This document shows, piece by piece, positions 25,476-58,708 of a stretch of DNA of 64,000 nucleotides. Numbering within the stretch: position 1 is the stretch's first letter; every line of letters starts with the position of its first letter. The notes beneath the pieces were generated by a model. It made no database searches and was not told where the DNA came from. It worked only from the letters and a program-made list of their open reading frames with translations. Origin of the DNA: a virus; IMG/VR virus record IMGVR_UViG_3300039008_000175, positions 1 through 64,000 of that record; one strand, written 5' to 3'. Both the position numbers and the translations under genes were made by a program.

Positions 25476-25499
25476 TAACATTAGTAAAAAAATAAGGAG
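25476..25499 (+). promoter_or_regulatory. class-2 upstream motif TAACAT-tagt-AAAAAAA-TAAGGAG
   Basis: AACA begins 31 nt before the ATG of the capsid candidate. Confidence 0.35.
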
Positions 25500-25507
25500 A
25501 ATATACA

Positions 25508-27554: not shown

Positions 27555-27585
27555 AGGCAGGTCCTTCGGGGCCTGTCTTTTTATT
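27555..27585 (+). terminator. intrinsic terminator after the capsid-candidate gene
   Basis: aggcaggtcc-ttcg-ggggcctgtct stem with a UUCG-type loop, then TTTTT. Confidence 0.8.
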
Positions 27586-27634
27586 GCCGTTTGTCATAAT
27601 AAGACAACACACCAAAAAGCAAGGAGGACACAAT

Positions 27635-38995: not shown

Positions 38996-39058
38996 AAAAA
39001 AACAAAGAGGATCCCTCCCCCGTATTGGGGGAGGGATGCCTTCTCTTTTTTGTTTTTT
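38993..39058. terminator. bidirectional terminator between convergent blocks
   Basis: A9 run, atccctccccc-gtatt-gggggagggat hairpin, then a T-rich run (ctcttttttgtttttt). Confidence 0.8.
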
Positions 39059-39246: not shown

Positions 39247-40197
39247 TTAGTCTTTGTTCTTTTCATCGCGCTCTTTCTTTGCGGAATGAGCGGCCAGTTT
39301 GGCAACGGCGGACTTGATGTTCCGTCTTCTCTGCATGATCAGACCGGCGCCCTTTCTGGTGTACTCAAGAGCCTTATTCAGGTTCTTCTTGAGGGTTCCC
39401 AGGCCGCTGCGAGCAGCGTCGTCGAAGTTGGAGGTCTTCATCTTCTGAACGGTCTTTTCCATCTTCTTCAGCTCGTCGTTGGCGGTGGTCAGGAACTTGC
39501 GGTCGGCTCTGGCTTCTACGAACAGTTCGTGAAGCTTGTTCTCGTTCAGATCGGAGAGTCTGACCTTGACGGTCTTGTTGATCTTTCCGCCCTTCAGGAA
39601 GAGCTTGGCCAGCTGATCATCAACCTTGCCACCTTCGGTGCTGGTATCGCCAGCTACGCTACCCTTCTTGTCCTTGTCGCCTTCAGCCTTATCAAAGGCA
39701 TCGACGGCGGCCTGGAACTTGTCGGTATAGGCTTTCATCTCGCCTTCCAGCTTGGAACCGCTGGAAGCGTCCCAGTTCCAGGACAGCATTTCCATGGTAT
39801 CCTTACAGGAGGAGGCGTGTTCGAAAGCCTTGGAGGCTCTCTTGTCCCACCAGGAGGAGTCGGCTTTGGTGAACTGCTTGTCCAGAGCGTCCCGGATCCA
39901 GGCCATGATGGACTTGATCTTGGCGGACACAGCGTCGGCCCACTTATTGATGGTGTCCATGAATGCACCTTCCATATCGGCTTCACTGGGGTCTGCAGCC
40001 CAGCCTTCCAGGTCACTGAAGTAGTTTTCCTTGTCCTTCACCGCTTCCATAGCGGTGCACATGAAGCGTACCTCTTCCCAGGCTTCACGGCATACATCTT
40101 CACATTCGGAGATGATGCCTTCAACAGCGTAGGCGTTCATACCGCCAACGTTGTAGTCGCTCGTAAGGTCCTTACGAATATCACTAACACTAATCAT
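39247..40197 (-). CDS. paralog family member 1 (316 aa), candidate internal head / ejected protein
   Basis: AAGGAG RBS and C-ending codon bias. N-terminal ...SDLEGWAADPSEADMEGAF then helical KIKSIMAWIRDALDK, alignable to members 2-5. K-rich C-terminus. Confidence 0.75.
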   Translation of the reverse strand: MISVSDIRKDLTSDYNVGGMNAYAVEGIISECEDVCREAWEEVRFMCTAMEAVKDKENYFSDLEGWAADPSEADMEGAFMDTINKWADAVSAKIKSIMAWIRDALDKQFTKADSSWWDKRASKAFEHASSCKDTMEMLSWNWDASSGSKLEGEMKAYTDKFQAAVDAFDKAEGDKDKKGSVAGDTSTEGGKVDDQLAKLFLKGGKINKTVKVRLSDLNENKLHELFVEARADRKFLTTANDELKKMEKTVQKMKTSNFDDAARSGLGTLKKNLNKALEYTRKGAGLIMQRRRNIKSAVAKLAAHSAKKERDEKNKD

Positions 40198-40205
40198 TAC
40201 TGATT

Positions 40206-40229
40206 CTCCTTATTTCTTTTGTATTTGTT
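40206..40229 (-). promoter_or_regulatory. class-2-like upstream motif (minus strand) AACAAAT-ac-AAAAGAAA-TAAGGAG
   Basis: AACA begins 32 nt before the ATG at 40197 (paralog 1). Confidence 0.3.
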
Positions 40230-40251
40230 CTGTTGCGATGAACGAAGAATA

Positions 40252-41301
40252 TTATTTCTTCTTTCCCTTCTTGTTGGTCTGAGCAGCCTTAACGGCAGCC
40301 TTGAAACCCTTCTTGAGGTCGCTTCTGCGGCTCATGATGGCCTTCATACCAGCTTTACACACAGCGATCTCTACATCGTAGAAGACCTTGATGGCACCGA
40401 TGGTATCGTTGATAACCTTACCGGCGCTTGCCTGTGCTCCGCCAACCTTGGCGTTGTCGGGGAGAGAGATCTTGTCCAGAGCGGCTTTCTCTTTCTTGAG
40501 AGCCTTTCTCATGTTATCCAGAGCCCGTCTATCTTCAACGGCCTTGGATACGAAGTTCATACCCTTCTCGTTACAGAACTCACTGAAAGAAACTTCGGAT
40601 TTGGTGCCCAGTCCGGTTTCACTTCCGGTCATGACACGTCCGACGAACTTCTTGGCGATTTCCGAGGGAACGGGTGCGTCGGGAGCGTTACCGCCTACCA
40701 GACCCTGGTAGATCTTGTTCTTGAGAGACTTAGCTCTGGACTTTTCAACCGCTTCAGCACCTCTGAAGATACCGTCATCGACCGTATCGATCTTGTCGAT
40801 ATATCCATCCAGCGCTTTTTTGGCGTCCTTGGAGCTTGCCTCGAACTGTTCTACGATATCCTTACCTTCACCGAAGGACCACTTGGCACTCATGGTTACT
40901 TTACCGCTGAGTTTGGCAGCGACGCCAATGAGTTCGGATCTTCCCTTGATGAATTTCTCATCACGGTTTGCCTTGAGCTTATCCAGCATCTTGTTGATGT
41001 AGGAAAGCATCTTATCGATGAGTTCCTTGATCTTGTCGATTACCTTCTTAGCTCCGCCCTTGATACTATCAAGAGCCCCTTCCAGTTCTGCGGTGGTGAG
41101 CACGTCTTCGAGTTCCAGTTCCCGACATTCAATGCCGACCCCGACCGTAATGGCCTCGAGGTCAGCCATGGCGTCAGACACTTCTTCCATAGCCTCGTTA
41201 ACGATGCCTTCCTGTTCGATCAGCTGAACCTGATCGAAAGCCATCGGCGTAGGCAGGACGTCTCTCGTGGACTGCTCCCGCAGATTCTCTAATACTGACA
41301 T
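40252..41301 (-). CDS. paralog family member 2 (349 aa)
   Basis: AAGGAG RBS. ...SDAMADLEAITVGV...TTAELEGALDSIKGGAKKVIDKIKELIDKMLSYINKMLDK. C-terminus QTNKKGKKK. Confidence 0.75.
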   Translation of the reverse strand: MSVLENLREQSTRDVLPTPMAFDQVQLIEQEGIVNEAMEEVSDAMADLEAITVGVGIECRELELEDVLTTAELEGALDSIKGGAKKVIDKIKELIDKMLSYINKMLDKLKANRDEKFIKGRSELIGVAAKLSGKVTMSAKWSFGEGKDIVEQFEASSKDAKKALDGYIDKIDTVDDGIFRGAEAVEKSRAKSLKNKIYQGLVGGNAPDAPVPSEIAKKFVGRVMTGSETGLGTKSEVSFSEFCNEKGMNFVSKAVEDRRALDNMRKALKKEKAALDKISLPDNAKVGGAQASAGKVINDTIGAIKVFYDVEIAVCKAGMKAIMSRRSDLKKGFKAAVKAAQTNKKGKKK

Positions 41302-41308
41302 AAAGAAT

Positions 41309-41337
41309 CTCCTTGCTTATTATTTTATGTATGTTTA
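41309..41337 (-). promoter_or_regulatory. class-2 upstream motif (minus strand) TAAACAT-acat-AAAATAATAAGC-AAGGAG
   Basis: AACA begins 34 nt before the ATG at 41301 (paralog 2), just downstream of the internal terminator. Confidence 0.35.
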
Positions 41338-41360
41338 ATACCTTAGTAAATATCGACAAT

Positions 41361-41388
41361 AAAAATCCCCGGGAATTAACCCGGGGAC
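41361..41388 (-). terminator. intrinsic terminator inside the paralog array (after member 3)
   Basis: On the minus strand: ccccggg-ttaatt-cccgggg followed by ATTTTT. Confidence 0.7.
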
Positions 41389-41408
41389 GAAATTGAAAGT
41401 TGATGGAC

Positions 41409-42371
41409 TTAGTCCTTCTTCTTATCTTCTCTTTCCTGCTTCTTCACCTCGGTAATGATCTTACCGAAGATACCCTTCAGGGAAGAACGGCGCTCTTTAC
41501 AGAGAGCCAGAGCGGTGCGGTTCAGGTTGATGGACAGGTTTACTGACTTCTTAATCTGACCCAGACCGGTCTTATAGATCTTGGCTTTGGCGTCTCCGCC
41601 TTCACTCTTTCTGTCGAAGGAAGCGGAGGACTTATCCAGAGTCTTCTTCAGCTTCTGGAGAGCAGCGATGGCCTTATTCAGCTCATCTTTCTCCTTGCGG
41701 CCGTCTCTCCAGATCTCAATGTACTTGAGATTGGCGAAGGTCTTCAGGGGATACTCTTTGTCCTTCTCGGTGTAGAAGTACTTCTTGATGACTTCCAGCT
41801 CGCCTTTCTTGTCATCAACGTTACCCATCAGAGAACGGGTTGCGCCGCCAGTGTCACTGGAGCTTCCACTTTCCAGACCGCTGATGACCTTATCCAGATC
41901 GTCGACGATCTTGTCGGTAGTCTCGGCGGCACCGATCTTGGTGTTGGTGGTCCACATCTTGGTCTTGACTTTGACCTTGTCAGCCAGTTTGGCACCGTCC
42001 AGGATGGTGGCTTCGTTCTTCTTCAGGAAGCTGTCATCCATCTTATCCAGAACCTTGTTGATGTACTCGTTGATCTTGGCGATGATCTTATCGATCACGG
42101 CCTTAACCTTGGCAATTGCGGCGCTGGCACCGTCTTTGACGCTGGACATGATACCTTCCATTTCCATGGAGTTGGCGTTTTCCATATCGACATCAGCGGT
42201 GACGGCCACTGCGACGCACATTGCTTCGAGGTCGGCGAAGTCATCACTGATCTCGTCCAGAGATGCTTCCAGGTCTGTATTGAACAGAGTGGGAATCAGA
42301 GTAGCGGAGGAAGTACCTTCAGCACCACCCATACCCATACGGGATGCAAGAGCACTGGGAATATTATGCAT
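41409..42371 (-). CDS. paralog family member 3 (320 aa)
   Basis: TAAGGAG RBS. ...SDDFADLEAMCVAV...NSMEMEGIMSSVKDGASAAIAKVKAVIDKIIAKINEYINKVLDK. C-terminus KKQEREDKKKD. Terminator downstream. Confidence 0.75.
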   Translation of the reverse strand: MHNIPSALASRMGMGGAEGTSSATLIPTLFNTDLEASLDEISDDFADLEAMCVAVAVTADVDMENANSMEMEGIMSSVKDGASAAIAKVKAVIDKIIAKINEYINKVLDKMDDSFLKKNEATILDGAKLADKVKVKTKMWTTNTKIGAAETTDKIVDDLDKVISGLESGSSSDTGGATRSLMGNVDDKKGELEVIKKYFYTEKDKEYPLKTFANLKYIEIWRDGRKEKDELNKAIAALQKLKKTLDKSSASFDRKSEGGDAKAKIYKTGLGQIKKSVNLSINLNRTALALCKERRSSLKGIFGKIITEVKKQEREDKKKD

Positions 42372-42378
42372 AATATAT

Positions 42379-42404
42379 CTCCTTATTCTTTTTTCTTATG
42401 TTTA
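42379..42404 (-). promoter_or_regulatory. class-2 upstream motif (minus strand) TAAACAT-aag-AAAAAAGAA-TAAGGAG
   Basis: AACA begins 31 nt before the ATG at 42371 (paralog 3). Confidence 0.35.
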
Positions 42405-42420
42405 TCATGATAAGCAAGAA

Positions 42421-43458
42421 TTACTTCTTTTTCTTATCATCCTTCTTGTTCTTCTTGTCATCAGCGGCGATAGCAGCGAATGCCGACTTGAGTTCTCTCT
42501 TCCGAGTACCGATAAGAGAGATGAGTCTCTTGGTCTGGCTACTACATGCCATTACAGCACTGCGGTTGGCACTGATAAGATCAGTCACTGCCTTGTAAGC
42601 AGTCTTCTTGTCCTTCAGATGATCGAAGTTTGAGATAGTCAGAGACTTCTCGGCCTTCTCAATGGTCTTTTGAAGGTTCTTCAGAGCAGCGATCTCTTTC
42701 CTGGTGTTGGTGAAGAGGTCCATGTACTTGGGACTGGCAAACGTACCAGCGGGTCTGGGCTTCGCCTCGCCGTCAGCCATCAGGAGCTTATCCAGGTGTT
42801 CGACGTAGTTGGCTTTGTTCAGATCACTATTGGCTACTTTGAGCTGCTTCCTTACATCTCCCAGATCACCACTACCTGATACTTTGGTGAAAGAACCAAG
42901 TATGCCTTTGATGAATCCGATAACACGAGAAGTGGCTTTCTTAACCTCTTCCTCCTTGGCTGCCTCAGGCTGCTCTTCTTTGATATTTGCAACATCAGAG
43001 AGCTCATCGGCTACTTTGGGGACGAGGTTGCAGACAGCTTCGACTTTCTTGGTATACTCATCGATTTTGTCGTTCTCGAGCCAGTTATGAGCAGTGATAG
43101 TAGTCTTACACTTGCTCCCATTAGCGATAGCGTCCTTACGCTTTTCAACCCACTTGGAGTCATACTTGTTAAGGATGCCAGTGATGAAGTCTCCGATGTA
43201 CTTGCGGATCTTCGCAAGTACTTCTTTGATCTTCTCGATCACTTTCTTGATCGCATCGGTGACGACTTCCATACCTTCCATCTCGATGTTTTCACCGGCC
43301 AGGTTGGCTGCCACGGTGATACTTTCCATATCACAGGCTGCTTCGGAGAGCGCATCCTGAGCACTCTCTAAGTCCATAACACTGAGTCCCAGAGGAGTGT
43401 AGGACTGAGCATCATTTACAGACTTGAGATCCAAGTCAAATGTATCCATTAAACCCAT
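42421..43458 (-). CDS. paralog family member 4 (345 aa)
   Basis: ...ACDMESITVAANLAGENIEMEGMEVVTDAIKKVIEKIKEVLAKIRKYIGDF. C-terminus DDKKNKKDDKKKK. Confidence 0.75.
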   Translation of the reverse strand: MGLMDTFDLDLKSVNDAQSYTPLGLSVMDLESAQDALSEAACDMESITVAANLAGENIEMEGMEVVTDAIKKVIEKIKEVLAKIRKYIGDFITGILNKYDSKWVEKRKDAIANGSKCKTTITAHNWLENDKIDEYTKKVEAVCNLVPKVADELSDVANIKEEQPEAAKEEEVKKATSRVIGFIKGILGSFTKVSGSGDLGDVRKQLKVANSDLNKANYVEHLDKLLMADGEAKPRPAGTFASPKYMDLFTNTRKEIAALKNLQKTIEKAEKSLTISNFDHLKDKKTAYKAVTDLISANRSAVMACSSQTKRLISLIGTRKRELKSAFAAIAADDKKNKKDDKKKK

Positions 43459-43472
43459 TATTGTACCTTCCT

Positions 43473-44675
43473 TTATTTAATGTATTTTACAGCCAGATGT
43501 AGAGCCTTGAACAGGTCATCACTACGCTGCTTATTTATGCTTTGGTTTACTACGGGAATCTTCATTGCAACCTGGTATACTTTCGCTAGTTCTTTGAACC
43601 CACGTATAGCCATGTTGATAGTGGGATCTATCCTCTGACCAGTTGCTGTATTTGCTTTGGTGACGATAGTGTAATCCACTTTAGTCCTCAGCTTTTCGAT
43701 ATCGCCTATTGTTCTATCAATGAGTCTCATCTCATCTTTGAGCTGCCTGACCGTATCCTTGATATATGCATCTTCTTCAGCACTCCATCCTGCCTGGATA
43801 ATCAACGACGTATAATCGTTAATTATATCCCGGACGGGTATCTTCCTAGGCTTAACCTTAGGGGGGTCCATGTAAAGAATAGCACCCTCATCGATTATAT
43901 TTTGGACTTTTTTGGGGACGTACTTACCACTCTTCTGAGCGGGGAGTACATAAGCATGAAGAAGCTTATCCCGGAGATCCATTGGATTCTTCAGAGCTTC
44001 AGCAATCTTTTTACCATCTGAACCGCCAAACCCTTTTACATTACCACCACCTCGCATCAAACTGTGTTCGATATCTGAGTAGTCTTTGATGTTCCCGAGT
44101 TTCACGTCCAGGTTACTCGATAGAGTATTTGCTCTGTTACCCTTGGATCCTTCATAATCCCTGAGAGTATCGCTTTTCTCATCCAGAATAAACTCAAGAT
44201 TTTGAGTCATTCCTATTCTCCCAACAGAAAGACATTTATTTATCCGTTCACTGAGTTGAGAGATTGATGTATACATAAATGCTACAGGTGTCCCATCCTT
44301 AAACCCTAAGAACCAATCATACGTGTTGACTGTTACGTCCTTGGGTATATTCTGGATAGCATTAAGATTATTCGATATGCGCTCTTGGATGGTTTGCATA
44401 TTTCTTATTTGGCGTTTATGAGTAAGATTATGGAACCAGGCAACTAGTTCCATAATCTTATCTTTAATGAACCTGAATACGTTGAGAGCCATCTCTATCA
44501 GTTTCCTGGCAATATCGCCAATAATCTGACCAACTCCCTCCGCATCATAGCCCATTTCCTCTTCTGTAAGCGAGAGGTTCGCTGATACAACCATTGCCTC
44601 CAAATCTGAAGCTGAGTCATAAATATGATCCAGATCTTCAAACTCAGAGAACAATGATGTTGCATATTCAATCAT
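43473..44675 (-). CDS. paralog family member 5, divergent (400 aa)
   Basis: ATGA overlap with the upstream gene and AT-rich codon usage, unlike members 1-4. ...SASDLEAMVVSANLSLTEEEMGYDAEGVGQIIGDIARKLIEMALNVFRFIKDKI. Lacks the K-rich tail. Confidence 0.7.
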   Translation of the reverse strand: MIEYATSLFSEFEDLDHIYDSASDLEAMVVSANLSLTEEEMGYDAEGVGQIIGDIARKLIEMALNVFRFIKDKIMELVAWFHNLTHKRQIRNMQTIQERISNNLNAIQNIPKDVTVNTYDWFLGFKDGTPVAFMYTSISQLSERINKCLSVGRIGMTQNLEFILDEKSDTLRDYEGSKGNRANTLSSNLDVKLGNIKDYSDIEHSLMRGGGNVKGFGGSDGKKIAEALKNPMDLRDKLLHAYVLPAQKSGKYVPKKVQNIIDEGAILYMDPPKVKPRKIPVRDIINDYTSLIIQAGWSAEEDAYIKDTVRQLKDEMRLIDRTIGDIEKLRTKVDYTIVTKANTATGQRIDPTINMAIRGFKELAKVYQVAMKIPVVNQSINKQRSDDLFKALHLAVKYIK

Positions 44676-45868
44676 CAGAAGAGATCCATGTCGTCATCGT
44701 CTTCATCTACTGCTTCAGGCTGAGAGGTTTTTACATCATCGTAATTATCTCTCTCATCCTTTACAGTTTTGGACTTCTTGACGGCTTTTTTGACGTTCTT
44801 GTCGACGGTCTTGGTTGCCTTACTGTAGACCTCTTCATGTTCGTCGATGTCGATCTTCACATACGCTTTACGCAGGTTCTCGATTCTCTTCTTCTTACGC
44901 TCAGGATCCATGTCATCTTCTGATTCGATCTCTTTGATGAGCTCGTTCAGCATGATGGCTATTCTACCTCTAATGAAGTAGACGTAAAAAACACAGAACT
45001 GAATACTGATCAAAAGAAAGCTTGTTACCAGTGTAATGATAACACCACCGGCCAGGATTCCTCCAACCGCTTCCATATCAGCTTTACCTGTTTCTTCCCC
45101 AACTCCGCTGGAGATTCTACCATACTGCTCAAAGCTGTTGATGCAGGACTTAACGTACTGGTGATAAATACCCTTGTTAACATATCCTACGAACTGGTCG
45201 AGCTGTTCGGTAAAGGGGATGAAAGGACGGTGTACGCCATTACGTGACCTGAACAGTCTCCAGAGTCCTCTACCTTCATCTACGTTCTTAGCCAACAGGC
45301 CAAGCTTGACACAGTTTGCGATGTTGTAGGTAAGCGCAATAACCGTCATAACGTAGGGATTGAAGGCGATAAACTCATCTTCGGCTACTTTGCCGTAGAG
45401 AGACCGGTAGTACATCATATTATATGCGTTTACCGTTTTATGCATCTCGAGAAGATCGAACGCTTTAATAGTGAGTTTGAACTCTTCAGCGTATCCTTTC
45501 CCGAGCTTCTTTTCGATTGTTTTGGAGTCAAGCTTCCGGAGATAATCCGTGAGCTGCTTGAGCTCCCCGTAGTACTTATACCGTCTGAAGACACCCTGAG
45601 ATGCATTAATCTCTTTGATGACCTGTGAGTCATGAAGCTTGTCTCCGGTCTTGATACCAGATTTGAGCTTATAGACTCTGGACAGATACGTCAGGCGAAA
45701 CCTGATGTTCTTCATACCGGCTACTAACACCAGTGCTGTTGCAGAGAAGAACCCTCCGATCGTAGCGCCGATCTTCTTGAGGAACTGTCTCTGTGTTGCA
45801 GGTACTCTGGCTGCTTCCATCTCAGTCAAGAGACAGACGCCATCATCATATACTTTCTTGTCAAACAT
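44675..45868 (-). CDS. membrane protein with acidic C-terminus (397 aa)
   Basis: Hydrophobic segments IGATIGGFFSATALVLVAGM and VGGILAGGVIITLVTSFLLISIQFCVFYVYFI. C-terminus SQPEAVDEDDDDMDLF. Confidence 0.7.
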   Translation of the reverse strand: MFDKKVYDDGVCLLTEMEAARVPATQRQFLKKIGATIGGFFSATALVLVAGMKNIRFRLTYLSRVYKLKSGIKTGDKLHDSQVIKEINASQGVFRRYKYYGELKQLTDYLRKLDSKTIEKKLGKGYAEEFKLTIKAFDLLEMHKTVNAYNMMYYRSLYGKVAEDEFIAFNPYVMTVIALTYNIANCVKLGLLAKNVDEGRGLWRLFRSRNGVHRPFIPFTEQLDQFVGYVNKGIYHQYVKSCINSFEQYGRISSGVGEETGKADMEAVGGILAGGVIITLVTSFLLISIQFCVFYVYFIRGRIAIMLNELIKEIESEDDMDPERKKKRIENLRKAYVKIDIDEHEEVYSKATKTVDKNVKKAVKKSKTVKDERDNYDDVKTSQPEAVDEDDDDMDLF

Positions 45869-45876
45869 AGCTTACG

Positions 45877-46980
45877 TTACACTCCCGCCATCTTGATAAT
45901 TTCACGAACGTCCCGTGTAGACATCTTACCGTTCTTCTCAGCCAGATCACCCAGGTCGTTAACTTCCCAGGACTTCTGACCATCTTTGATTGTGAAGACT
46001 TCTTCTCTCACACCGTCGATGATTGCTACGGTTAAAAGCATGAGCTTATCCATAGTATTCCTGACGGATCTGAGACCTGATTCTTTGACGATATCAACAC
46101 CTTCATTTCTGCGGATGTTGTTATAGTCAGCTACGTCCATAAGGACGTTGAACCAGGGAAGCTTCTTCTTGTCGGAGAGAACGGCTTTCCTGAAGTAGTT
46201 CTCAACCAGAGCCTTGTTCATAGCAAATGCCCAGCCTTCGCCTTCCTGGTGAGACTTCTTTTCGATCTTGGCCATCGTCTTCATCTTCTCAAAGGCAAAG
46301 ATGATGTCATTGAAGAAGTTCACCTTTCCAGTCACCAGTCTCCTGAGCTGTACAATCAGTGCAGGCTTCAGGTTCATAGCGAACAGAGAAGTGAGAGTCT
46401 TGGCATTGACGTGGATGATCCGAACTTTAACTCCGAAGTCAAAGCTGATCTCCTGGGTCTTGGTATGGAATGTGTAGGTGAGAATACTGGGAGACTTGTT
46501 GTTGAACTTCTTGACGATGTTCTTACCATCGTTGGAGCTCATAGTGACATCAGCCCGGTTGTGAACCCTGTCAGGCTTATCACCGCCACCGCCTTTATTA
46601 GTAGACGGATGACCGCCTTTCTGAGGCCAGTTTCCAGCACCACGAGGAGCTGCTTCCATCTCGGCAGCTTCGGCGTTGTAGATCATTTTCATCATATCAG
46701 AGCCGGTTCCCTGCCTATCGATGATCGAGCTGATAGCCAGCTTGGTCATGATAACAAGTTCATTTTCCAGACTCTGAGCATACAGAGAAACGTCTTCTGC
46801 ATCACAATTGGATGATACCAGAAGATCGTAGTAGCACATTGATGCGTTCGCTTTCCTGGCAAGAGAGTCTCTTTTCAGATAACCCGATAGAGACTTCTTG
46901 AGAGCTTTGAGTTCATCAAATGCGCCCTCTGTCGTTCCGTCACCAATCATGATGTCGGAGATATCGGTAATTAACGACAT
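45877..46980 (-). CDS. hypothetical protein (367 aa), first gene of the minus-strand block
   Basis: ATG at 46980 preceded by AGGAGG. No motif recognised. Confidence 0.7.
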   Translation of the reverse strand: MSLITDISDIMIGDGTTEGAFDELKALKKSLSGYLKRDSLARKANASMCYYDLLVSSNCDAEDVSLYAQSLENELVIMTKLAISSIIDRQGTGSDMMKMIYNAEAAEMEAAPRGAGNWPQKGGHPSTNKGGGGDKPDRVHNRADVTMSSNDGKNIVKKFNNKSPSILTYTFHTKTQEISFDFGVKVRIIHVNAKTLTSLFAMNLKPALIVQLRRLVTGKVNFFNDIIFAFEKMKTMAKIEKKSHQEGEGWAFAMNKALVENYFRKAVLSDKKKLPWFNVLMDVADYNNIRRNEGVDIVKESGLRSVRNTMDKLMLLTVAIIDGVREEVFTIKDGQKSWEVNDLGDLAEKNGKMSTRDVREIIKMAGV

Positions 46981-48138: not shown

Positions 48139-48178
48139 TTTGAATAGTAAAGTGTTCATTCGATCGACACTATTCAAA
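48139..48178. promoter_or_regulatory. 10-bp inverted repeat in the divergent control region
   Basis: tttgaatagt (48139-48148) pairs with actattcaaa (48169-48178). The nearby direct repeat CACT(AC)CCGTAGT lies at 48034-48044 and 48124-48138. Confidence 0.4.
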
Positions 48179-48229
48179 GATATAATATATAATCAATCGA
48201 GTAAATTGATTATTTTTAAAGGAGATTTT

Positions 48230-49429
48230 ATGAGCGATGAACAAGATCGGCTTATAGAAATGATGGCCACCCTCCCAGAGCCAACGTTGCCTTATTGGGA
48301 CTCTCGTAGTGACCTGTCTCCCGCAGAAATGGAGCATGTCCATAAGAACTACGACAACGTCTCCCTTACCTGGAATGCTGATAACTTCAAGAAGCTTTTC
48401 GATGGTGCAAGAGGAGATAACATCAATACATTGATGGATGGTCTGGGGGATACAGTTGTACGTCAGTATAACGGTCTCAGAGAAGCCGGATTAAACGAAA
48501 CACAGAGTGCAATCAGCAGGTTCGATCCTCTTAAGTTCAGATTGAATGAAGAGCCTGCTCATACTGGTAAGGGAGCTTCTTATATCTTTATCACTCGTCC
48601 TCCTCTTAATCTCCTTGGTATAGGACACGAGGATGCGCTTACTGATAAGGATAAGTTTCCTGATGGAACAGTGAACCTTCATCACCTGCCTATGTCGAAC
48701 TTCTATCTATATAGTGCCAGATATAAAGAAGTATACTTAGCGCTTGCCAGTATGATGGATAGATTCGGTAGCGCACCGAATAAATTCATGCCTGTACTCA
48801 GTAACTTCGCTGAAGATTTCAATGGTATACCTGAACTTACCATAGAAACAGAAGAAACAACTGGAACCTTTGAAGGAAGGACTCAAGTCTTTGCCAAAAC
48901 TATGGAGCAGAGCTATGGTAACAGTGGCTCACTTAATGTAACTTACTTTGAGAACTCCAGGTACTTCGTTATGCTTACTCACCTTATGTGGGTATCATAT
49001 ATAGGTGCAGTAGCAAGAGGTAAACTCAGACCTTCTTACGATTACAACTATAGTAATATAATGGACTATACAAGCTCTCTATTCTTTGTCAGGACGTGTG
49101 AGAACATGGTCGACATAGACTTCATTGCTAAGTTCATTATATTCCCTACAAACGCTCAGCAGAACCTTATGGATGGATTAACTGGCGGTGATTTCGTTAA
49201 ACCAAATATAAACTACCGGTATCTTCATGTTGAACACAATATCATGAATATCATCGGTGAGTTCAATGATGCAGGTGGAGGCGATATAGCTTCTGATGCT
49301 GATATCTGGGGACTTACTTCCGTTGGAGGTAATCCTACCATCAAGTACGATGGTGATAGTATATACAAAAGAATATGTACCAGGCCCTATATTACCAGCG
49401 ATGGTAAGCTTCTGTGGGTCAGATCTTAA
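48230..49429 (+). CDS. hypothetical protein (399 aa)
   Basis: ORF track gives 48140. The ATG at 48230 follows AAAGGAG by 6 nt. Confidence 0.65.
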   Translation: MSDEQDRLIEMMATLPEPTLPYWDSRSDLSPAEMEHVHKNYDNVSLTWNADNFKKLFDGARGDNINTLMDGLGDTVVRQYNGLREAGLNETQSAISRFDPLKFRLNEEPAHTGKGASYIFITRPPLNLLGIGHEDALTDKDKFPDGTVNLHHLPMSNFYLYSARYKEVYLALASMMDRFGSAPNKFMPVLSNFAEDFNGIPELTIETEETTGTFEGRTQVFAKTMEQSYGNSGSLNVTYFENSRYFVMLTHLMWVSYIGAVARGKLRPSYDYNYSNIMDYTSSLFFVRTCENMVDIDFIAKFIIFPTNAQQNLMDGLTGGDFVKPNINYRYLHVEHNIMNIIGEFNDAGGGDIASDADIWGLTSVGGNPTIKYDGDSIYKRICTRPYITSDGKLLWVRS

Positions 49430-49446
49430 AATAAAAGGAGAGGAAG

Positions 49447-52323
49447 ATGTCACAGGCGAATCAGAATATACTGATTGATATTCTCAAGAAGAATACATTA
49501 ACGTCTGAAGAGCAGAAAGCCAATGTTGATATATCTCATGCTGGTACTCTTGGATTCACTTTGAATGCAATTGCTGACCGTATGGATGATATCGACTTTG
49601 AAATCAGACGGAAATTTAACCAGGTATTTCCTGAAGAAACAGATATACCTGAGTATATCTATAAGCATGTATTTAGGCACGGCATGTCCGATATATTCGG
49701 TAAGTGTGCACAGGCTAGTATGATGCTTACATTCGATATAAAGGAGTTCGATAGGTATGCTCCTGTACACAATGGGTATAAGAGAGCTGTATTTCCCCAG
49801 GGTACTACCATTAAAGCAGGGGATACAGAGTTCTCCTTATATCACCCGATCGTTGTTAATCTCCAGGAATATGGAGAGAAGATAATCACTGCTTCATATG
49901 ATATAGATACGATGTGTTCTATATCACCAGTGAAAGCAGAGCCTATCAACGTATCCCGTGGTGCAGGGTCGAAAGTCACTCTTATTGTACCCATGGGTCA
50001 GTTCAAAAGAAGCTCCTATAGCTTTCTAGTTGATACACTTGATCTGGGCAATACCATGTCATTTAAAGCACCTGCCGGTGGTGATGTGTGTGGTTTCGAT
50101 GTTTTCATCACTAAGCCCGATGGTACTGTACAGGTACTTGCCAAATACTACAGCTCAGAAGTTGCTCCGAGAACTGCACCTCCTTTTGTATATTGGAAGT
50201 ACAATGGTTCTGAGATAGAAGCCACTTTCAGTATGGACTACCGTCATTACAAACCTTCTATTGGAGATACGATGAATATCGTCGTGTATGAAACAGAAGG
50301 AGTTAAAGGTAATATTAAATACTTTGGCAATGACTACTCGATTGTATATCCTTCTGAAGTAGAAGGCCAGAGTCAGTATCTTGGTAATATCTTCATCGAG
50401 TCTAAACTCTCTGGTGATATTGCAACTGGTGGTACAAATGAGAAAACATTCGAAGAGCTCAAAGAGTATTCCACCCGGATAAATACAACCAAGGGTATTA
50501 TCAACTCTGAAGCTGAGATCAATCAGCACTTTAAGGATAAAGGTGTAGACTTCGAGGAGATCAGAAAGGATAACCTCAGAGCGGTATACCGTGGTAATGT
50601 TATAGCTAAAACAGATAAAGGAATCATTCCTACTCGTACGGTTGATATGGTGGTTGATCCCGAAGTATCTGGCCCGTTCAAAGATAAGCTCCTTACACTA
50701 AGAGAAGCATCTTGTTATAGTCCATTATCTGAGGATCCTCATGGTATCGACAAGACGTATAAGCATAACCAGGAGATGAGTACTCAGTTCTTTGACTGGG
50801 AGAATAATCTTGGTGAAGTATTCGATATGGATGAGGCTGGTACTCTTATGTCTTGCCCATTTAATATCAGAATCCTTGAGAACGGTCCTGGTGTTGCACT
50901 GACTACTTTCTTCACCGATGAAGTAGTTAGCATGAGAGGAACTCATAGCGTGGATAGAAGTATCCATCAGACTCCTATATTCTATACAAACGTAAAGCGT
51001 AATCCTATACTCGATGATGGGTGGCTTATTGATATCCCTGTGATGCTTGATCCGATTACTCTGGAAGAGTTTAAGGCTGATCCTACTGTATTGACAATAG
51101 GTATTGGTATCAGAGGAAAAGAAACATATGAAGTTGCTACATTAGCAGATGGGTTCTATGTGGACTCTGAACTACCTGATGTATACCACTTCACCAAGAC
51201 TCTCAGAACAGATAACGCTACTGATATATTTGGTAATATCAGAATCCTCACAGATGCAAATATGGCCAATGGTAGAACTGGTAGTAAGATCGTAAATGAG
51301 TTCTTCTATATCTCACCTGAGATCGAGATTGATGTTGTTACCTTCTATAAGGATGGAGTTAATCCATTTGTAGATGAGGGCCATCCTCTTGTCGTGAATG
51401 GTATATTCAGTAATATCCTCAATGAATTATATAAGATGTTTAGCGCATATGGAATGGAAAGGAAGATCACTCTTGGTGATGACTTCACTGATTTCTTTAT
51501 GCCTTATATAGAACCTATCTTTGGACCCAAGGAATATCATGTCTTTGAAGAAGATAAGCCCAGGAGATATCTAACTGATAAATATGACGTAGGATATAAC
51601 GAAGGTGAGCTTGTTACAACTCTTGTTAAGAAGGCAGGGGAACTTGTCTATGATGCACAGGGGAATGTGGAGTATGAGCACCGGAAAGGTGATCCTGATC
51701 TCTCCAGACCCAGAGTCAGAAGCGTTGTATATAAACTCGAGAACATCCCTCTTGTTAAATCAGTTTATCTGTTGGATGATAAAAGGTCTAGTGCCTTCTA
51801 TCAGTCAATCAGAGATATGAGAGCTGAGATGAAGTCGGATACCTTTGTTAGAGGATCCAATATCACCTTCATGTTCCGGTATATGAACTGTTTTGGACCA
51901 TCATCTGAGTATTTCGCTTACAAGGGCGATGACTATAAACAGTTATCTCGTGTGGATACCCAGCTCACCTTCAGAGCCAAGATGGCAGCCAGTGTTGACG
52001 TGACACAGAGACCTATCATCCTGAGTGAGATGAAGACTATTATCAAAGATATGGTCAGTACAACAAACAGTGCAGGTGGATTTAATATCAATGATATTAT
52101 CACCCGGCTTACTAATACATATAAGACCCAGCTTGAAAAGCTTGAGTTTGTATCAATCAACAATCTACCCACAGAGTTTCAGAGTATTGGACGAGTTGCC
52201 TCTAATGATGTGAATACAGCTGCTGACTATATCACGATTCGTGAGAAGTTAAACAGAGCTGCATTCATGCAGAAGAGTCTTGTGTTCGATGTTGATATCG
52301 ATATTGCTCTGATAACACAATAG
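49447..52323 (+). CDS. large hypothetical protein (958 aa), possibly structural
   Basis: AAGGAGAGG RBS. No RNAP or enzyme motif seen. Confidence 0.65.
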   Translation: MSQANQNILIDILKKNTLTSEEQKANVDISHAGTLGFTLNAIADRMDDIDFEIRRKFNQVFPEETDIPEYIYKHVFRHGMSDIFGKCAQASMMLTFDIKEFDRYAPVHNGYKRAVFPQGTTIKAGDTEFSLYHPIVVNLQEYGEKIITASYDIDTMCSISPVKAEPINVSRGAGSKVTLIVPMGQFKRSSYSFLVDTLDLGNTMSFKAPAGGDVCGFDVFITKPDGTVQVLAKYYSSEVAPRTAPPFVYWKYNGSEIEATFSMDYRHYKPSIGDTMNIVVYETEGVKGNIKYFGNDYSIVYPSEVEGQSQYLGNIFIESKLSGDIATGGTNEKTFEELKEYSTRINTTKGIINSEAEINQHFKDKGVDFEEIRKDNLRAVYRGNVIAKTDKGIIPTRTVDMVVDPEVSGPFKDKLLTLREASCYSPLSEDPHGIDKTYKHNQEMSTQFFDWENNLGEVFDMDEAGTLMSCPFNIRILENGPGVALTTFFTDEVVSMRGTHSVDRSIHQTPIFYTNVKRNPILDDGWLIDIPVMLDPITLEEFKADPTVLTIGIGIRGKETYEVATLADGFYVDSELPDVYHFTKTLRTDNATDIFGNIRILTDANMANGRTGSKIVNEFFYISPEIEIDVVTFYKDGVNPFVDEGHPLVVNGIFSNILNELYKMFSAYGMERKITLGDDFTDFFMPYIEPIFGPKEYHVFEEDKPRRYLTDKYDVGYNEGELVTTLVKKAGELVYDAQGNVEYEHRKGDPDLSRPRVRSVVYKLENIPLVKSVYLLDDKRSSAFYQSIRDMRAEMKSDTFVRGSNITFMFRYMNCFGPSSEYFAYKGDDYKQLSRVDTQLTFRAKMAASVDVTQRPIILSEMKTIIKDMVSTTNSAGGFNINDIITRLTNTYKTQLEKLEFVSINNLPTEFQSIGRVASNDVNTAADYITIREKLNRAAFMQKSLVFDVDIDIALITQ

Positions 52324-52333
52324 GAGTATCGCT

Positions 52334-53533
52334 ATGAGAAAACCAAGACCGGTTACACCGGAGGAACATGAATATCTGATGAGTCTTACTGTGGATGACT
52401 ACGGAGTTAAGCTATTGGCATCGTTGTTTGCAACGACGAATAAGAAGCCCGCTAAGTTCATCCCTAAGGATACGATGACTCTACCTGCTGGTAAGATAAA
52501 TAATAAAACAACTGTGAAGACAACTGTTGGTCGGTATATCCACAACATGGGGCTTCTGTATAAAGTATTTGGTAATACAATTGAGTATACCAACTATGCC
52601 TGGGATAATAAGGGCTATGGTAAGCTTGAAGGTGAACTTGAGACTCTTCTTATGGAAGACAAGATCACTGGCCGTCAGATCGCGCAGTTCATCAATGAAT
52701 GGCGAGTCTGTACATCTGCTGCTGAGTTCATGAATCCTTCTGCAAACGTTGATGTAATGGCAACCTCTCCTGAAGTTGATGCGTATAAGAAGAAACTATT
52801 CAAACAGTACGACGATGAACTCAACAACGGCAATATCGAAGTAATGAACAAAGTAGATAAGTTAATCACCGCTAAGGTTATCGAAGTCTACAGTAAGAAC
52901 CCTGCATTCTCTCTTTATGAGACAGGTGGTAAGCCTAAGGCATCTGAGCAGTTGAAGCAGGGCATTGCATGCATTGGATACGTTCGTGTTGACGGTAAGG
53001 ATATTTACATCAGAGAATGCTTTGCTGATGGTGTAAGTATCGAAGGAAATATCCTTGAAGGTAAGAAAGCAACAGATGGTGTTGTAGACCGTAACAAATC
53101 AACTCAGGATGGTGGATACCAGACTAAGTTGGTAATCGGTGCTCTTACTACTTACACTGTCGACAGGAATCCGAAGTCTGACTGTAAGTCAACTACCTAC
53201 TATAAAGTTAAACTCACCAAAGACAACAAGAAAGACTGGCTCTATACATTCGTTAGGACCAGTAAGAGTAATCATAACCTTGTTGAGCTTACATCTGAGA
53301 ATATAGATAACTTTTTGGATAAAGATATTGAGGTCCGGGCGCCTCTCTTCTGTAAGTCTAAGACGATCTGTTCTAAATGTATTGGAACACGTCCTTATAG
53401 AATGGAGATATACGATATTGGTCTTATTTATCCATCAAATACATCAGGACTCTTACAGAAAGCTTTGAAAGCTATGCACTCTACAAAAGTAGACCTTGTG
53501 AAGCTTGATTTCTATGGAGCGTTTAAATTGTAA
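52334..53533 (+). CDS. multisubunit RNA polymerase beta-prime-like middle fragment (second copy of the bridge-helix/zinc region)
   Basis: TTVGRYIHN (cf. beta-prime TTVGR). ETGGKPKASEQLKQGIACIGYV and DGVVDRNKSTQDGGYQTKLV are bridge-helix-like. Zinc motif RAPLFCKSKTICSKCIG. It ends at LLQKALKAMHSTK..., which resembles the start of the trigger loop. Confidence 0.7.
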   Translation: MRKPRPVTPEEHEYLMSLTVDDYGVKLLASLFATTNKKPAKFIPKDTMTLPAGKINNKTTVKTTVGRYIHNMGLLYKVFGNTIEYTNYAWDNKGYGKLEGELETLLMEDKITGRQIAQFINEWRVCTSAAEFMNPSANVDVMATSPEVDAYKKKLFKQYDDELNNGNIEVMNKVDKLITAKVIEVYSKNPAFSLYETGGKPKASEQLKQGIACIGYVRVDGKDIYIRECFADGVSIEGNILEGKKATDGVVDRNKSTQDGGYQTKLVIGALTTYTVDRNPKSDCKSTTYYKVKLTKDNKKDWLYTFVRTSKSNHNLVELTSENIDNFLDKDIEVRAPLFCKSKTICSKCIGTRPYRMEIYDIGLIYPSNTSGLLQKALKAMHSTKVDLVKLDFYGAFKL

Positions 53534-53539
53534 TAAAAG

Positions 53540-53570
53540 CCAGGGCCCATAACGGGCCCTGGTCTATTTA
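53540..53570. terminator. bidirectional terminator between convergent genes
   Basis: ccagggccc-ataac-gggccctgg. T-rich on the minus-strand side (cttttatta), weaker on the plus side. Confidence 0.7.
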
Positions 53571-56500
53571 TCTTACTTTGTCTGCGGCGTCTCTGATGAA
53601 CTTCTCCAGCTTAGCAATCTTAGTATCATAACCAAGATGCTTACCGAACTTCTTCCATCCCTCTACAGGTAGAGAGTTGAAGAACCCGGTGATCGCTGAA
53701 TCAACTTCAATACGACCGTCATCGTCGAATAGCTTGTCAGCTCCAATATTCATAAAGTTGCCTTTTCTCTTCTTGAGATCTTTGTAGACCTTCAGAACAT
53801 CTTCTGCAACTGACTTATTGGTGGCTTTCTTACGACGTTTCTTCTTCTTTGTCTTCACATCGTTATCGATGATCATCCCAAGAGGAGCTGCCTGCTCAGC
53901 GTAGTGATCTCTGATCTTTTTGGCTTCAGCAGGGATAGGGGCACCTATATACTGAAGATAAGGATTCATATACCCATTGAGTTTCTTAATCCTTTCCAGC
54001 TCAGCAATATCAGCATCAAGCTTGGCTTCGATATCCGGAGTGAGTTTCGCATCACCCTTCATTCTAGTGAGTCTATCGATGGTTGCATCAATACGCTTGT
54101 TTACACCAGGATGACTCGCACCGCCCTGGATGAGCATAGTGATCACATTGTATACATCATTTGAGAACTGGAACAGGATGTTGATGATAGGAACACTGGT
54201 CATGATCTTCTGGATCATATTGTACTGGTCGTACTTCTGCCCTCTCATCTTAACAAGTGCCATCTGCACATCTGCACCATACCCATATGCCGTAGCCATA
54301 GAATCTGACTCATACTCCTTCTGACGATGAAGTTTACCCGAGAGTCTACCATGCCAGAAGTCAGATGCTTTATAGGGAGTAATGAACTGAGTGATCATAT
54401 TTCCCCAAGAGATCAGAGGCGACTTGATGAAAAGGAAGAGGTACTCCACACCTATAAGAAAGGTGAATACAACCCAAACTACTCTACCGAATGCAACTGC
54501 ACCGGCAAGTTCGTTCTCTTGATCATATAGTTCTCTGGCTTTCTTCTCGTACTCTTCTCGTACCTTCCGAAGCTCTTTGATAACCTTGTCAGGATTCTTC
54601 ATATCAATCATATTGAGCTGAAGAGCTAATAGATTAATATATGATGCCATGATATCACCCAGCGAGATCATAGCGAATGGGATAAGCCCAGGTACCATCA
54701 GAGGGTTGATAACATAAGCCATCAATGCAGGTGCCAGACAGATGGTTGCATGCCAGAACGCAAGCTTGTTGGCAAGCTTATAGCGCTTTCTGGTTTCATC
54801 ATACATACCCCAGTCAGAGTAGAACTCAAACTGGTGACCTATCTCATGAAGAAGAATACCCACACATTCCCTATCGGTGATGAGTGAGTTAACCAGAAGA
54901 CCACGATTCAAGAGGATATAAGCAGGAAGCTTACCCTTCTTAAACCGGATCCCTTTCTTATCAATCGACCATACACCTGCTTTAATCTCTTCAGGAGTGT
55001 AGTAGTCGTTTTCAATAAACATTGCAAATGCAATGGTGGCAGCATTGAGATCTGCCTGGGTCATATCGATGTCTGTGTTCTTGAAGTTGAAGATCTTTGT
55101 GATAAGCTTCTCCAGCTTCTTACGGATAGTAATTTGACCATCACTCAGGCTCACAGCCGATGCTTTAACACCATTAGACGAAAGCCACTCTTCTCTGAGA
55201 TCATGGATAAGTTTCACCATATCCAGATCAACTCTGCTATCATTTACGATATTAAGTTTAGAGAAGATAGATACAGCCGGAGCATCCTTATTAAGGAGAG
55301 TGTACGTCGCTTCGAGATCGGAATTCTCTCCACTGATAATCTCGTAGCACTCCAGCTCTGCTTCTGTGAGTTCTGCGGTGGCCATCGATAATAGGTCATA
55401 CCCCAGTACATCCTCCATCATAGGAACAGACGGAGGAGTCTTCGATTCGGGGTTCTTGAAGTTCAGATCTGTACCCTTCGTTGCTAATGCATAGAAGAAG
55501 GATACAAGAGTCTTCGGCTGAAGCGTCTGGAACTGCTTATTAACCCATCTTATATCAGAGAAGGGAAACAGCTGCCTCTCGACGTTCTGCATGAGAAGCT
55601 TGTTCTCTTTAGAGAGTTTACTATATAGGTTATTGAATCTATGAGTTGCCATAGACTTAAATGTCTCAGTAGTAAGATTGAAGAACTCTTCACTCTCTTC
55701 ATTGGGCATCCTGTTCTTTGCTGCAACAATGAAAGGAACTTCGAATGCACTATAGATATCTCTTCCATAGAAGAGAGATTCGATATAGGCATCTTCCAGT
55801 TTGAAGTCGGTATCGAAACTGTACTTAGCACACTCCTGATCCTTCACAATAACATCAGTACCGTTTACTGCTTCTTTGATTGTATTATTTGAACTGATGA
55901 TCTCATCCTTATAGGTAGAGATCATTCTAGCGTAGTTGGGACCAACAACTTCTTTGACATATGCAATGAAGCCGTCTTTTACCGCCAGGACATAGTCTTC
56001 GGGTGATTCAGGATTGAAGGTCTGTCTGGCCATGAATCCGTTTACTCCGAAGAAGAATAGATAGAAGGTTCTCATGGGATCAAAAGCATCCCTGCCGAAC
56101 TGGTTGTTGTATTTCATTGCATTTGCAACATTGCGGTTATCGCCGATCCAGTCAGGGGAGAGCATACCGGCAATATAGCGCAAGTGGTTAACGATACACA
56201 TCCTGAATAAAGACTGTACACTGGAGTTACCCACCTTAACATGCACAGGGCTAAATACATTGGTTGATCTAGCCGCATTGAAAGACTCAGTGGCAACGAG
56301 CTGCATGAACTCTTTACCATCTTCTTTCTTCGAGTATATGTTGAGCATATACCCTCTTTTGTCTGACCGATCTATAAACTGATGGACGTTGGGTGTCACA
56401 TCTGTGATATTGATCTGCTCACCCAGGAACCTGGTAATGAGCCAATACCCTAACTCCCTTTCAGTAGATACCTCAGTCAGAATAAAGCTCCTTCTCGACT

Positions 56501-56842: not shown

Positions 56843-56858
56843 AGGAGGTTTGATTAGC

Positions 56859-58630: not shown

Positions 58631-58708
58631 CGTATCTCTTTAATAAAGCTTGGGGTAAGCTAACACGAGAGAACAAGAAAATTCACGACAAAGAAATAGG
58701 AGTAATTA

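Follow-up and report, generated by a model that had tools for sequence, protein, structure and literature searches.

Five tandem paralogs with acidic leaders and basic bodies in a metagenomic phage: a likely internal head protein operon of the phiKZ type, divergent from PF12699

The heads of phiKZ-like jumbo phages contain internal proteins of the PF12699 (phiKZ_IP) class, which comprises gp92-97, gp162 and gp163 of phiKZ, gp53-58 of Goslar and gp53/54 of SPN3US. These proteins are mostly encoded in one operon, are present in tens to thousands of copies per virion and are cleaved by the head protease; many of them are injected with the DNA (PMC5694885, PMC11297242, 10.64898/2026.04.21.720040, 10.1101/2024.03.24.586471). 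They are the most abundant non-shell head proteins of the chimalliviruses, and the role of these DNA-coinjected proteins has been called "a key unsolved mystery" (10.64898/2026.04.21.720040). The internal proteins (IPs) of T4 also stay with the DNA and are injected (PMC5694885). The present analysis concerns five consecutive minus-strand genes, m1 to m5, at positions 39247-44675 of a 64,000-nucleotide stretch (the window) of the IMG/VR record IMGVR_UViG_3300039008_000175, which is part of a 255,143-bp Joint Genome Institute (JGI) metagenome contig. It is likely that these genes, probably together with two co-oriented genes upstream of them, constitute an internal head protein operon of the phiKZ type, whose products form a divergent sister group of PF12699. 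This reading is built on the paralogy and common architecture of the proteins, the statistics of a sequence motif and their repetition in relatives, the distribution of the family, the gene order, and weak links in homology, fold and synteny. We regard the locus as a known module in divergent form and not as a new type of system.

A preliminary description of this DNA had listed five minus-strand open reading frames (ORFs) of 316, 349, 320, 345 and 400 amino acids (aa) as paralogs, and the five ORFs were recovered at the same positions: m1 at 39247-40197, m2 at 40252-41301, m3 at 41409-42371, m4 at 42421-43458 and m5 at 43473-44675. In formal alignment with BLASTP, m1 to m4 are mostly full-length paralogs with 26-30% identity (E = 1e-19 for m2-m3, 3e-16 for m3-m4, 9e-12 for m1-m3, 3e-8 for m2-m4 and 5e-7 for m1-m4), and the m1-m2 pair alone is weak (E = 0.02). 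The claim of paralogy did not hold pairwise for m5, whose best BLASTP match (E = 5e-4, to m4) covers the N-terminus only and which gave nothing significant with phmmer. We assign m5 to the family as a divergent member because the family hidden Markov model (HMM) recovers it with E = 3.7e-6 among 231 ORFs and because it has an ortholog in a related contig (L001_6786, E = 3e-7).

Each of the five proteins is divided into an acidic leader and a basic body. The leaders comprise residues 1-76 of m1 (nt 39970-40197), 1-74 of m2 (nt 41080-41301), 1-72 of m3 (nt 42156-42371), 1-61 of m4 (nt 43276-43458) and 1-46 of m5 (nt 44538-44675); they have isoelectric points (pI) of ~4 and net charges of −12 to −16 in all five, in line with the acidic N-terminal modules that had been described. 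The bodies have net charges of +12 to +21 and a pI of ~9.5, and comprise 240-284 aa (27-32 kDa) in m1 to m4 and 354 aa (40 kDa) in m5. The body of m1 has 240 aa, 26.8 kDa and a pI of 9.5; that of m2 has 275 aa, a net charge of +21 and the C-terminal tail NKKGKKK; those of m3 and m4 have 248 and 284 aa, the latter with the tail KKNKKDDKKKK; and that of m5 has a pI of 9.5 and lacks a Lys tail. The Lys-rich C-termini of m1 to m4 and their absence from m5 agree with the earlier reading, and such C-termini also occur in most of the 21 members of the family alignment. They are of mixed charge, where the last 20 residues have a net charge of +2 to +9, and binding of the tail to DNA would be a guess. 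The split into acidic leader and basic body was found in all 21 members, with mean charges of −13.4 and +13.5, and the bodies in all 21 are basic (+3 to +21, pI 8.6-9.8).

An AlphaFold2 model of m3 was computed from the 21-sequence alignment, with a predicted local distance difference test (pLDDT) of 77 and a predicted template modelling score (pTM) of 0.73. Residues 1-30 are disordered in the model; a leader helix follows, then a low-confidence break at residues 62-67 just ahead of the leader-body boundary, and a long helix at residues 68-108, which opens a helical bundle with two short, charged strands. A helical block past the boundary had been proposed from the letters, and the predicted helix 68-108 bears this out. 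No hydrophobic segment was found in m1 to m5, whose 19-aa Kyte-Doolittle averages peak at 0.56-1.26, below the threshold of ~1.6.

The strings that had been picked out by eye in the leaders and at the boundary collapse to one motif, [DE]-[LM]-E↓[GAS] (the arrow marks the putative cut), with one to three copies per leader. ADLEA is present at residues 46-50 of both m2 and m3, and the boundary strings ADMEG, AELEG, MEMEG and IEMEG were all found as described. The sites are DLE↓G at 62-65 and ADME↓G at 73-77 in m1; ADLE↓A at 46-50 and AELE↓G in m2; DLE↓A at 33 and 47 and EME↓G at 70 in m3; DLE↓S, DME↓S and IEME↓G in m4; and SDLE↓A and YDAE↓G in m5. The boundary of m5 had been called degenerate, which was not upheld: YDAE↓G is a variant that recurs in the relatives P0007, P0010 and P0018. 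At the aligned boundary of the 21 members, Glu occupies P1 in 21/21, Asp or Glu P3 in 18/21, Met or Leu P2 in 15/21 and Gly P1' in 13/21.

The motif is strongly enriched. The 48 proteins of the window contain 23 sites, compared with 4.5 ± 2.1 in whole-protein shuffles (n = 2000; highest shuffle count 14). The seven co-oriented genes from m1 to n7 account for 14 sites (0.68 expected) and the five leaders for 11 (0.41 in leader-only shuffles, where 0 of 5000 reached 11), while the first 95 aa of the other 17 family members contain 18 sites (0.99 expected). The motif is confined to 12 of the 48 window proteins, a head-protein-like set that consists of the candidate protease described below, proteins of 356, 673, 874 and 1049 aa (the last at 53568-56717), m1 to m5, and the upstream genes n6 and n7; no site was found in the terminase, RNA polymerase (RNAP), helicase, primase and remaining window genes. 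In a related phage (loci L001 and L010; orthologs 23-57% identical), 19 sites were counted against 1.9 expected, and the motif is present in the same orthologs and missing from the same others. Family-wide, 28 of 30 sites lie within the first 100 residues, and none was found in the 240-354-aa bodies of m1 to m5. This confinement points to removal of a leader and not degradation of the protein, and we infer that the prohead protease recognises this motif. The reversed motif was dropped as a control, since x-E-M-E strings match the reversed form too and it is not independent.

A gp21-like protease had been reported in this genome, and a candidate for the prohead maturation protease was indeed found as a 337-aa ORF at 21644-22657 on the minus strand. 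It matches phrog_3014 'head maturation protease' with E = 1.1e-8 and Peptidase_S80 (PF20034) with E = 1e-4 and 22.0 bits, where the Pfam cut-off is 23.4 bits; no sequence match was found in PDB. This ORF is the presumed processing enzyme. Its C-terminus has two motif sites of its own, EME↓S at 266 and LELE↓G at 295; an ortholog with 51% identity has C-terminal sites at 224 and 261, and LELE↓SF at 261 aligns with the window site at 295. These sites suggest a C-terminal self-processing comparable to that of T4 gp21 and the phiKZ gp175-type proteases.

The genes of the window include several split multisubunit RNAP genes of the beta/beta' type, a large terminase, an SbcC-like protein, a helicase and a primase, and several ORFs match PHROG 'virion structural proteins'. 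Because of the split RNAP genes, the large terminase and the S80-type protease, the phage is classed by its gene content as a phiKZ-like jumbo phage. Compared with the terminases of Bacillus and Staphylococcus jumbo phages, its own shows no more than 31% identity, and the phage is far from every isolate. The locus gave no nucleotide match in 50,697 phage records, and m3 and the proteins of 673 and 874 aa gave none there in tblastn. In the same records phiKZ gp93 matches Pseudomonas phages only, and these empty searches are therefore little informative. The closest terminase (31% identity) is that of Bacillus phage BpSp; synteny with this phage was considered and rejected, as it is not conserved. 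No chimallin was found within the window, where the sequence of a 575-aa ORF with high codon bias is without a match in PDB, and therefore the phage is not called a chimallivirus.

The homology to PF12699, whose gathering cut-off is 27 bits, is transitive. P0013, which is 38% identical to m1 over the full length (E = 4e-67), reaches 25.4 bits against PF12699 (E = 1e-5), below the cut-off. P0019 reaches 29.3 bits, above the cut-off, and matches the window profile with E = 7e-6 (whole library) and the family profile with an hhalign probability of 83%. P0005 matches PF12699 with E = 0.012, where its residues 67-346 are colinear with profile positions 80-339. Among the 231 ORFs the family HMM returned phiKZ gp86 (6e-6), Phabio gp140 'internal head protein' (0.006) and phiKZ gp96 (0.0075), with a background that starts at ~0.3. 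In the reverse search, an HMM of phiKZ and Phabio internal proteins placed gp86 and a BpSp protein first and the window family next, ahead of all other ORFs. phiKZ gp86 itself (L009, 9677-10945) matches the phiKZ/Phabio internal-protein HMM with E = 2.4e-4 and may be an unrecognised distant relative of PF12699.

The structural comparison leads to the same class of proteins. Foldseek of the m3 model against BFVD gave nine matches with E <= 1e-3, down to 4e-5, with a probability of 1.00 and a best template modelling score (TM-score) of 0.67/0.72. Nearly all of the named matches are virion or head proteins of phiKZ-like phages, among them AR9, 201phi2-1 (consecutive accessions), SL2, Phabio, Noxifer, Psa21, RP12/RP31, pTD1 and PhiEaH1. 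The SL2 match has the same length as gp258 'internal head protein', the gp93 ortholog, and the Phabio match has the same length as gp139, which lies within the Phabio internal-protein operon; these two identities rest on length and organism. An extended helical bundle is the predicted fold common to the m3 model and the PF12699-type proteins.

The gene order provides a further link. The plus-strand anchors at 49447-53533 are transcribed divergently from the array and adjoin it, as in phiKZ, where gp87 and gp80 lie beside the gp89-97 operon. One, at 49447-52323, is a 958-aa homolog of phiKZ gp87 that matches it colinearly in two places (E = 2e-5 and 0.003); the other, at 52334-53533, has 399 aa and is homologous to phiKZ gp80, a beta-type subunit of the virion RNAP (E = 1.6e-13). 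PHROGs 3248 and 2962 are matched by these gp87 and gp80 homologs. The related contig L001 has the same layout. Like the PF12699 operons, the array is made up of tandem paralogs and lies among head genes, with gp87-like and virion RNAP genes as neighbours. The bridging sequences, the reciprocal HMMs, the fold and the synteny support the view that the five proteins are a very divergent sister group or superfamily relative of PF12699 and not a member as defined by Pfam. The relation is placed at this level, and called transitive, because the window proteins miss PF12699 while their relatives approach or pass its cut-off. The resemblance to phiKZ-like internal head proteins that had been proposed from the sequence is supported by genome type, PF12699 links, structure, synteny and motif.

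Several features of the array are the same as in PF12699 systems, in which an operon contains 2-8 diverged tandem paralogs in a phiKZ-like jumbo phage. In both, an acidic N-terminal part ends in x-x-E↓ and is followed at once by an amphipathic, K-rich helix (ISxE↓DIKExxKK... in phiKZ and xEME↓GxMxxIxDxxKKVIxKIK... in the window family), which opens a mostly helical-bundle body of ~27-32 kDa (31 kDa for mature gp53/54 of SPN3US). In phiKZ gp92-96 the S-x-E is invariant, at residues 154-156 of gp93. The differences lie in the leaders, which have 46-76 aa here compared with 65-260 aa in phiKZ (to the aligned site) and ~125 aa in SPN3US; in the site, with an acidic P3 and Met or Leu at P2 here instead of S/A/G-x-E; in the body charge, which is +3 to +21 over the 21 members but −7 to +14 in phiKZ gp92-96; and in the Lys-rich C-terminal tails of most members, which the phiKZ proteins lack. 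No sign of the capsid-binding 'S-shaped' N-terminal segments was found here. The resemblance to the T4 IPs that had also been suggested stands as an analogy in outline, and not as homology, since no Pfam or PHROG match to T4 IP families was obtained. IPI, IPII, IPIII and Alt of T4 are small basic proteins that enter the head by means of an N-terminal targeting peptide, which a gp21-family prohead protease removes after Glu. However, their targeting sequence has 10-20 aa and an L/I-x-E site, compared with acidic leaders of 46-76 aa and several sites here, and they are not an ancient five-member paralog family and have no sequence or fold relation to the array.

A profile search with HMMER, run exhaustively over 1.84 billion representative proteins, gave 22 matches, ~18 of them outside this phage, and no match carried a name. 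The relatives have 308-393 aa, except for one repetitive protein of 1216 aa, and have the whole leader-boundary-body architecture. A word-indexed protein search returned the window's own proteins only, and P0007 had no match in viral contigs. The 265.5-kb contig L001 contains the same neighbourhood, with terminase-side genes on one side, and its array runs in the order m5-like, m4-like, m3-like, m2-like and two m1-like genes. Its orthologs of m1 are these two (E = 2e-55 and 2e-52); those of m2, m3 and m4 are L001_10001 (1e-41), L001_8905 (1e-43) and L001_7858 (2e-15), and that of m5 is positional. The least clear ortholog is that of m4, whose best overall match is an m3-type gene of the locus L004.

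The window proteins are closer to their L001 counterparts than to any paralog within the phage, and the order is the same; therefore, the duplications predate the split of these phages. By this comparison the array is ancient, with its order kept, and neither a recent amplification nor copy-number noise. The persistence of ancient paralogs in a fixed order suggests that the five have distinct, non-redundant roles. More distant members of the family are encoded in other contigs, with at least four tandem copies beside a large tail-tube-domain gene in L005 (7616-13430) and only one copy in L006 (1801-2790), where a gene for a T4-type portal (PF07230) is found a few genes away. The family may reach beyond phiKZ-like phages.

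The codon use of the array is uneven. The GC content at third codon positions (GC3) is 0.70 in m1, which is the maximum of the window, 0.62 in m2, 0.67 in m3, 0.57 in m4 and 0.42 in m5, where the window median is 0.45. The biased codon set that had been noticed in m1 to m4 and not in m5 is therefore real (0.57-0.70 versus 0.42). Because the GC3 of m1 to m3 (0.62-0.70) is similar to that of the window's most biased genes, these three would be the abundant species. As a separate observation, GC3 climbs along the direction of transcription from m5 to m1, monotonically except at m2, which hints that abundance is graded and that one or two species dominate, as reported for gp58 of Goslar.

Taken as internal head proteins, the five would act as follows, where we infer cleavage, packaging, copy number, ejection and DNA binding. 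The precursor is near-neutral by sequence, with the acidic leader of 46-76 aa ahead of a basic helical body of 27-40 kDa. The leader would direct the precursor into the assembling prohead or retain it there. The S80-type protease (21644-22657) would then cut after Glu at [DE]-[LM]-E↓[GAS], the last site being the ...ME↓G or ...LE↓G boundary, and cuts at the one or two upstream sites would fragment the leader into small peptides able to exit the capsid. The basic bodies would remain in the head with the DNA, m1 to m3 being abundant as judged from codon bias, and, if phiKZ and Goslar are a guide, at least some of them would probably enter the host along with the ejected genome. A bolder version of this scheme takes the leader as an intramolecular charge mask, which would keep five distinct, Lys-tailed, DNA-condensing proteins inert in the cytoplasm until the protease activates them within the capsid in a zymogen-like manner. 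The mature proteins would then form an ordered, non-redundant, chromatin-like coat that organises the packaged genome and enters the host with it. The idea arises because the charges of leader and body nearly cancel (−13.4 and +13.5), and it is rather doubtful; if true, it would give the PF12699-type proteins a concrete biochemical role.

A number of points weigh against the assignment as an internal head protein operon. The phage is uncultivated. None of m1 to m5 matches PF12699 even at E <= 0.1, and direct hhalign against phiKZ gp92-96 is weak (probability 14%, E = 0.002, 52 columns); it aligns exactly the helix after the cleavage site. The Foldseek TM-scores are mostly 0.35-0.5, where long helical bundles cross-match readily, and against PDB the m3 model gave nothing significant. 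The Pfam match of the protease falls slightly under the cut-off, and the capsid protein candidate of 673 aa, described below, could not be confirmed as such. Finally, the acidic P3 departs from the published specificities of S/A/G-x-E for phiKZ, A-x-E for SPN3US and L/I-x-E for T4 (PMC5694885). Cleavage at these sites is therefore an extrapolation, and the acidic P3 would be a lineage-specific preference of the protease.

The match to phiKZ gp86 also means that some members could be bound to the capsid and not ejected. In this case, some or all of the five would be inner-capsid cement or vertex-binding minor capsid proteins, cleaved and then fixed to the inner capsid surface, as phiKZ gp86 is and as gp93 and gp162 are through their N-terminal segments. 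In phiKZ, the inner vertex-binding complex contains gp86 as a helical-bundle protein that undergoes cleavage (PMC11297242); gp86 is the best phiKZ match of the family HMM (6e-6 among the 231 ORFs), over the helix directly after its cleavage site, and the authors of the Goslar study report unassigned PF12699-like helical density on the capsid wall (10.64898/2026.04.21.720040). However, the gp86 match covers only ~35 residues, its structure (8Y6V chain G) is a poor match of the model (rank 41, TM-score 0.18). gp86 also differs in being a single-copy, capsid-bound protein. In addition, separate virion structural genes hold the gp86/gp87 position (48140-52323), and five uniformly basic, Lys-tailed bodies fit DNA-associated internal proteins better. 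A capsid-bound role is thus unlikely, and it would be compatible with the internal head protein assignment, since phiKZ gp93 has both roles. Acidic helical N-termini with several protease-type sites, encoded among head genes, would also be expected of scaffold or core proteins such as T4 gp22, gp67 and gp68, which are acidic helical head-assembly proteins processed by the same protease class, and one distant member has a weak Pfam match to the scaffold family Phage_GPO (E = 0.027). These T4 proteins are cut throughout, expelled and absent from mature virions, whereas the sites here are confined to the leader and none lies in a body; the bodies are basic (pI 8.6-9.8) where scaffolds are typically acidic, and the links in homology and fold lead to PF12699 proteins, which are retained in virions. 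The scaffold alternative is consequently very improbable.

Even less probable is a function as ClyA-type alpha-pore-forming, membrane-active proteins that would remodel or line a host-derived membrane, such as the early infection vesicle, after ejection. ClyA-family toxins (PaxB, XaxB, SmhA/B, AhlB, MakA, HblL1, NheA, ClyA and Cry6Aa) dominate the Foldseek matches of the m3 model in PDB, the best being PaxB with E = 5.7e-3 and a probability of 0.77, and PF12699 proteins enter the lipid vesicle in phiKZ and Goslar (10.64898/2026.04.21.720040, 10.1101/2024.03.24.586471). None of these matches is significant, however, the TM-scores being at most 0.29, and designed helical bundles and ABC-transporter helices in the same list point to a generic helical similarity; moreover, m1 to m5 lack a hydrophobic segment and the two predicted strands are charged. 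This lead was rejected on the TM-scores and the hydropathy (0.56-1.26). The least credible alternative is that the five are non-virion proteins, nucleoid-associated or early, and that the motif and the array are coincidental. Basic, Lys-rich proteins could bind DNA anywhere. Nevertheless, the motif enrichment is repeated in orthologs and is common to the protease and head-like proteins, the structural neighbours are virion proteins, the locus is syntenic with the head-gene region of phiKZ, and n7 of the same co-oriented block matches a virion structural PHROG.

On the preferred assignment to internal head proteins, the module extends to a deep-branching, uncultivated lineage of jumbo phages, in a form that sequence models miss. 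Over this distance, the tandem operon, the acidic leader, the Glu cleavage boundary with its K-rich helix and the helical body are conserved, and the leader length, the P3/P2 specificity, the body charge and the C-terminal tails are free to vary. Ancient, ordered paralogs whose orthologs are closer than their paralogs argue against a simple dosage amplification. Internal head proteins are expected in such a phage; a charge-balanced subfamily of five gives a new angle on the question of their role. In practice, the putative site [DE]-[LM]-E↓[GAS] could serve to predict, from sequence, which head proteins of this clade are processed. The family can be used in annotating metagenomic jumbo phages, and its subfamily here, which is compact (~27 kDa) and uniformly basic, is suited to biochemistry.

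The two upstream genes correspond to the membrane protein and the further co-oriented gene that had been placed at 44675-46980. n6 (44675-45868, minus strand) encodes a 397-aa membrane protein with transmembrane-like segments at residues ~33-51 and 271-301. It has an N-terminal TEME↓A site at residues 15-19, which is kept in an ortholog of 38.5% identity (residue 13) and would imply a short leader of the length of a T4 capsid targeting sequence. n6 is reminiscent of gp47 of SPN3US, a processed ejection protein with a transmembrane segment, and is probably part of the same processed head or ejection module. A cleavage just ahead of the transmembrane segment, modelled on gp47, at a second site (ADME↓A, 263-267) was considered and discarded, as the position of the site is not conserved in the ortholog. 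n7 (45877-46980, minus strand; 367 aa) is the first gene of the co-oriented block and matches phrog_23804 'virion structural protein' with E = 3.4e-8. At residue 107, n7 carries an AEME↓A site, and a basic stretch rich in Gly comes after it. The L001 ortholog of n7 has 485 aa and motif sites at 116 and 152; the N-terminal 109 aa are 45% and the C-terminal 223 aa 57% identical, with an insertion between them.

Further motif-bearing proteins are encoded on the plus strand near the terminase. The 673-aa protein (25508-27529) has a strong codon bias (GC3 0.65) and motif sites at residues 58, 72 and 123. In a comparison of three orthologs, its first ~125 residues show little conservation, except that E74-G75 and E125 are invariant, and E125 directly precedes a highly conserved body; the N-terminus thus has the appearance of a propeptide. 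It is a candidate for the major capsid protein, whose identity is not established: no similarity was found in PDB (phmmer and profile), PHROGs, Pfam or the 50,697 phage records, only two orthologs were found among 5.8 billion clusters, and the AlphaFold2 model from three sequences has a pLDDT of 39. The sole hint is a PHROG 'major head protein' match of one ortholog, with E = 0.16. The 874-aa protein (27584-30208) adjoins the terminase and has a C-terminal site at 747 (715 in the ortholog), and the 356-aa protein (24379-25449) has sites at 144 and 160 (155 in the ortholog). Neither has an annotation or a match in the phage databases; both are candidates for further processed head proteins, and the 874-aa protein is possibly the portal.

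Two hairpins flank or divide the array in a consensus scan, which found 20 terminator-like sites in the stretch against 8.1 expected. A GC-rich palindromic hairpin at 39011-39037, with a 12-bp stem and T-runs on both strands, is a bidirectional terminator-like site between m1 and a convergent plus-strand gene. The other, at 41365-41388 on the minus strand, has 9 pairs (7 GC) followed by TTTTATTG, and lies ~20 nt past the m3 stop, between m3 and m2; it may divide the array into m5-m4-m3 and m2-m1 transcription units.

Long antisense ORFs were also observed opposite the GC3-richest genes, at 39286-40203 (+), 40219-41292 (+), 41785-42633 (+), 25481-27286 (−) and 58706-59782 (−). They have 282-601 aa, their translations are Leu/Ser-rich and of low complexity, and the one at 40219-41292 (+), with 357 aa, outsizes m2 (349 aa). 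Those opposite m1 to m3 are shadow ORFs, because the coding strand is GC3-rich and the homologs are exclusively on the minus strand. Elsewhere in the window, a 553-aa ORF at 56850-58511 (+) sits amid structural and RNAP genes and matches an HNH-endonuclease PHROG with E = 4.7e-10; it is possibly a homing endonuclease.

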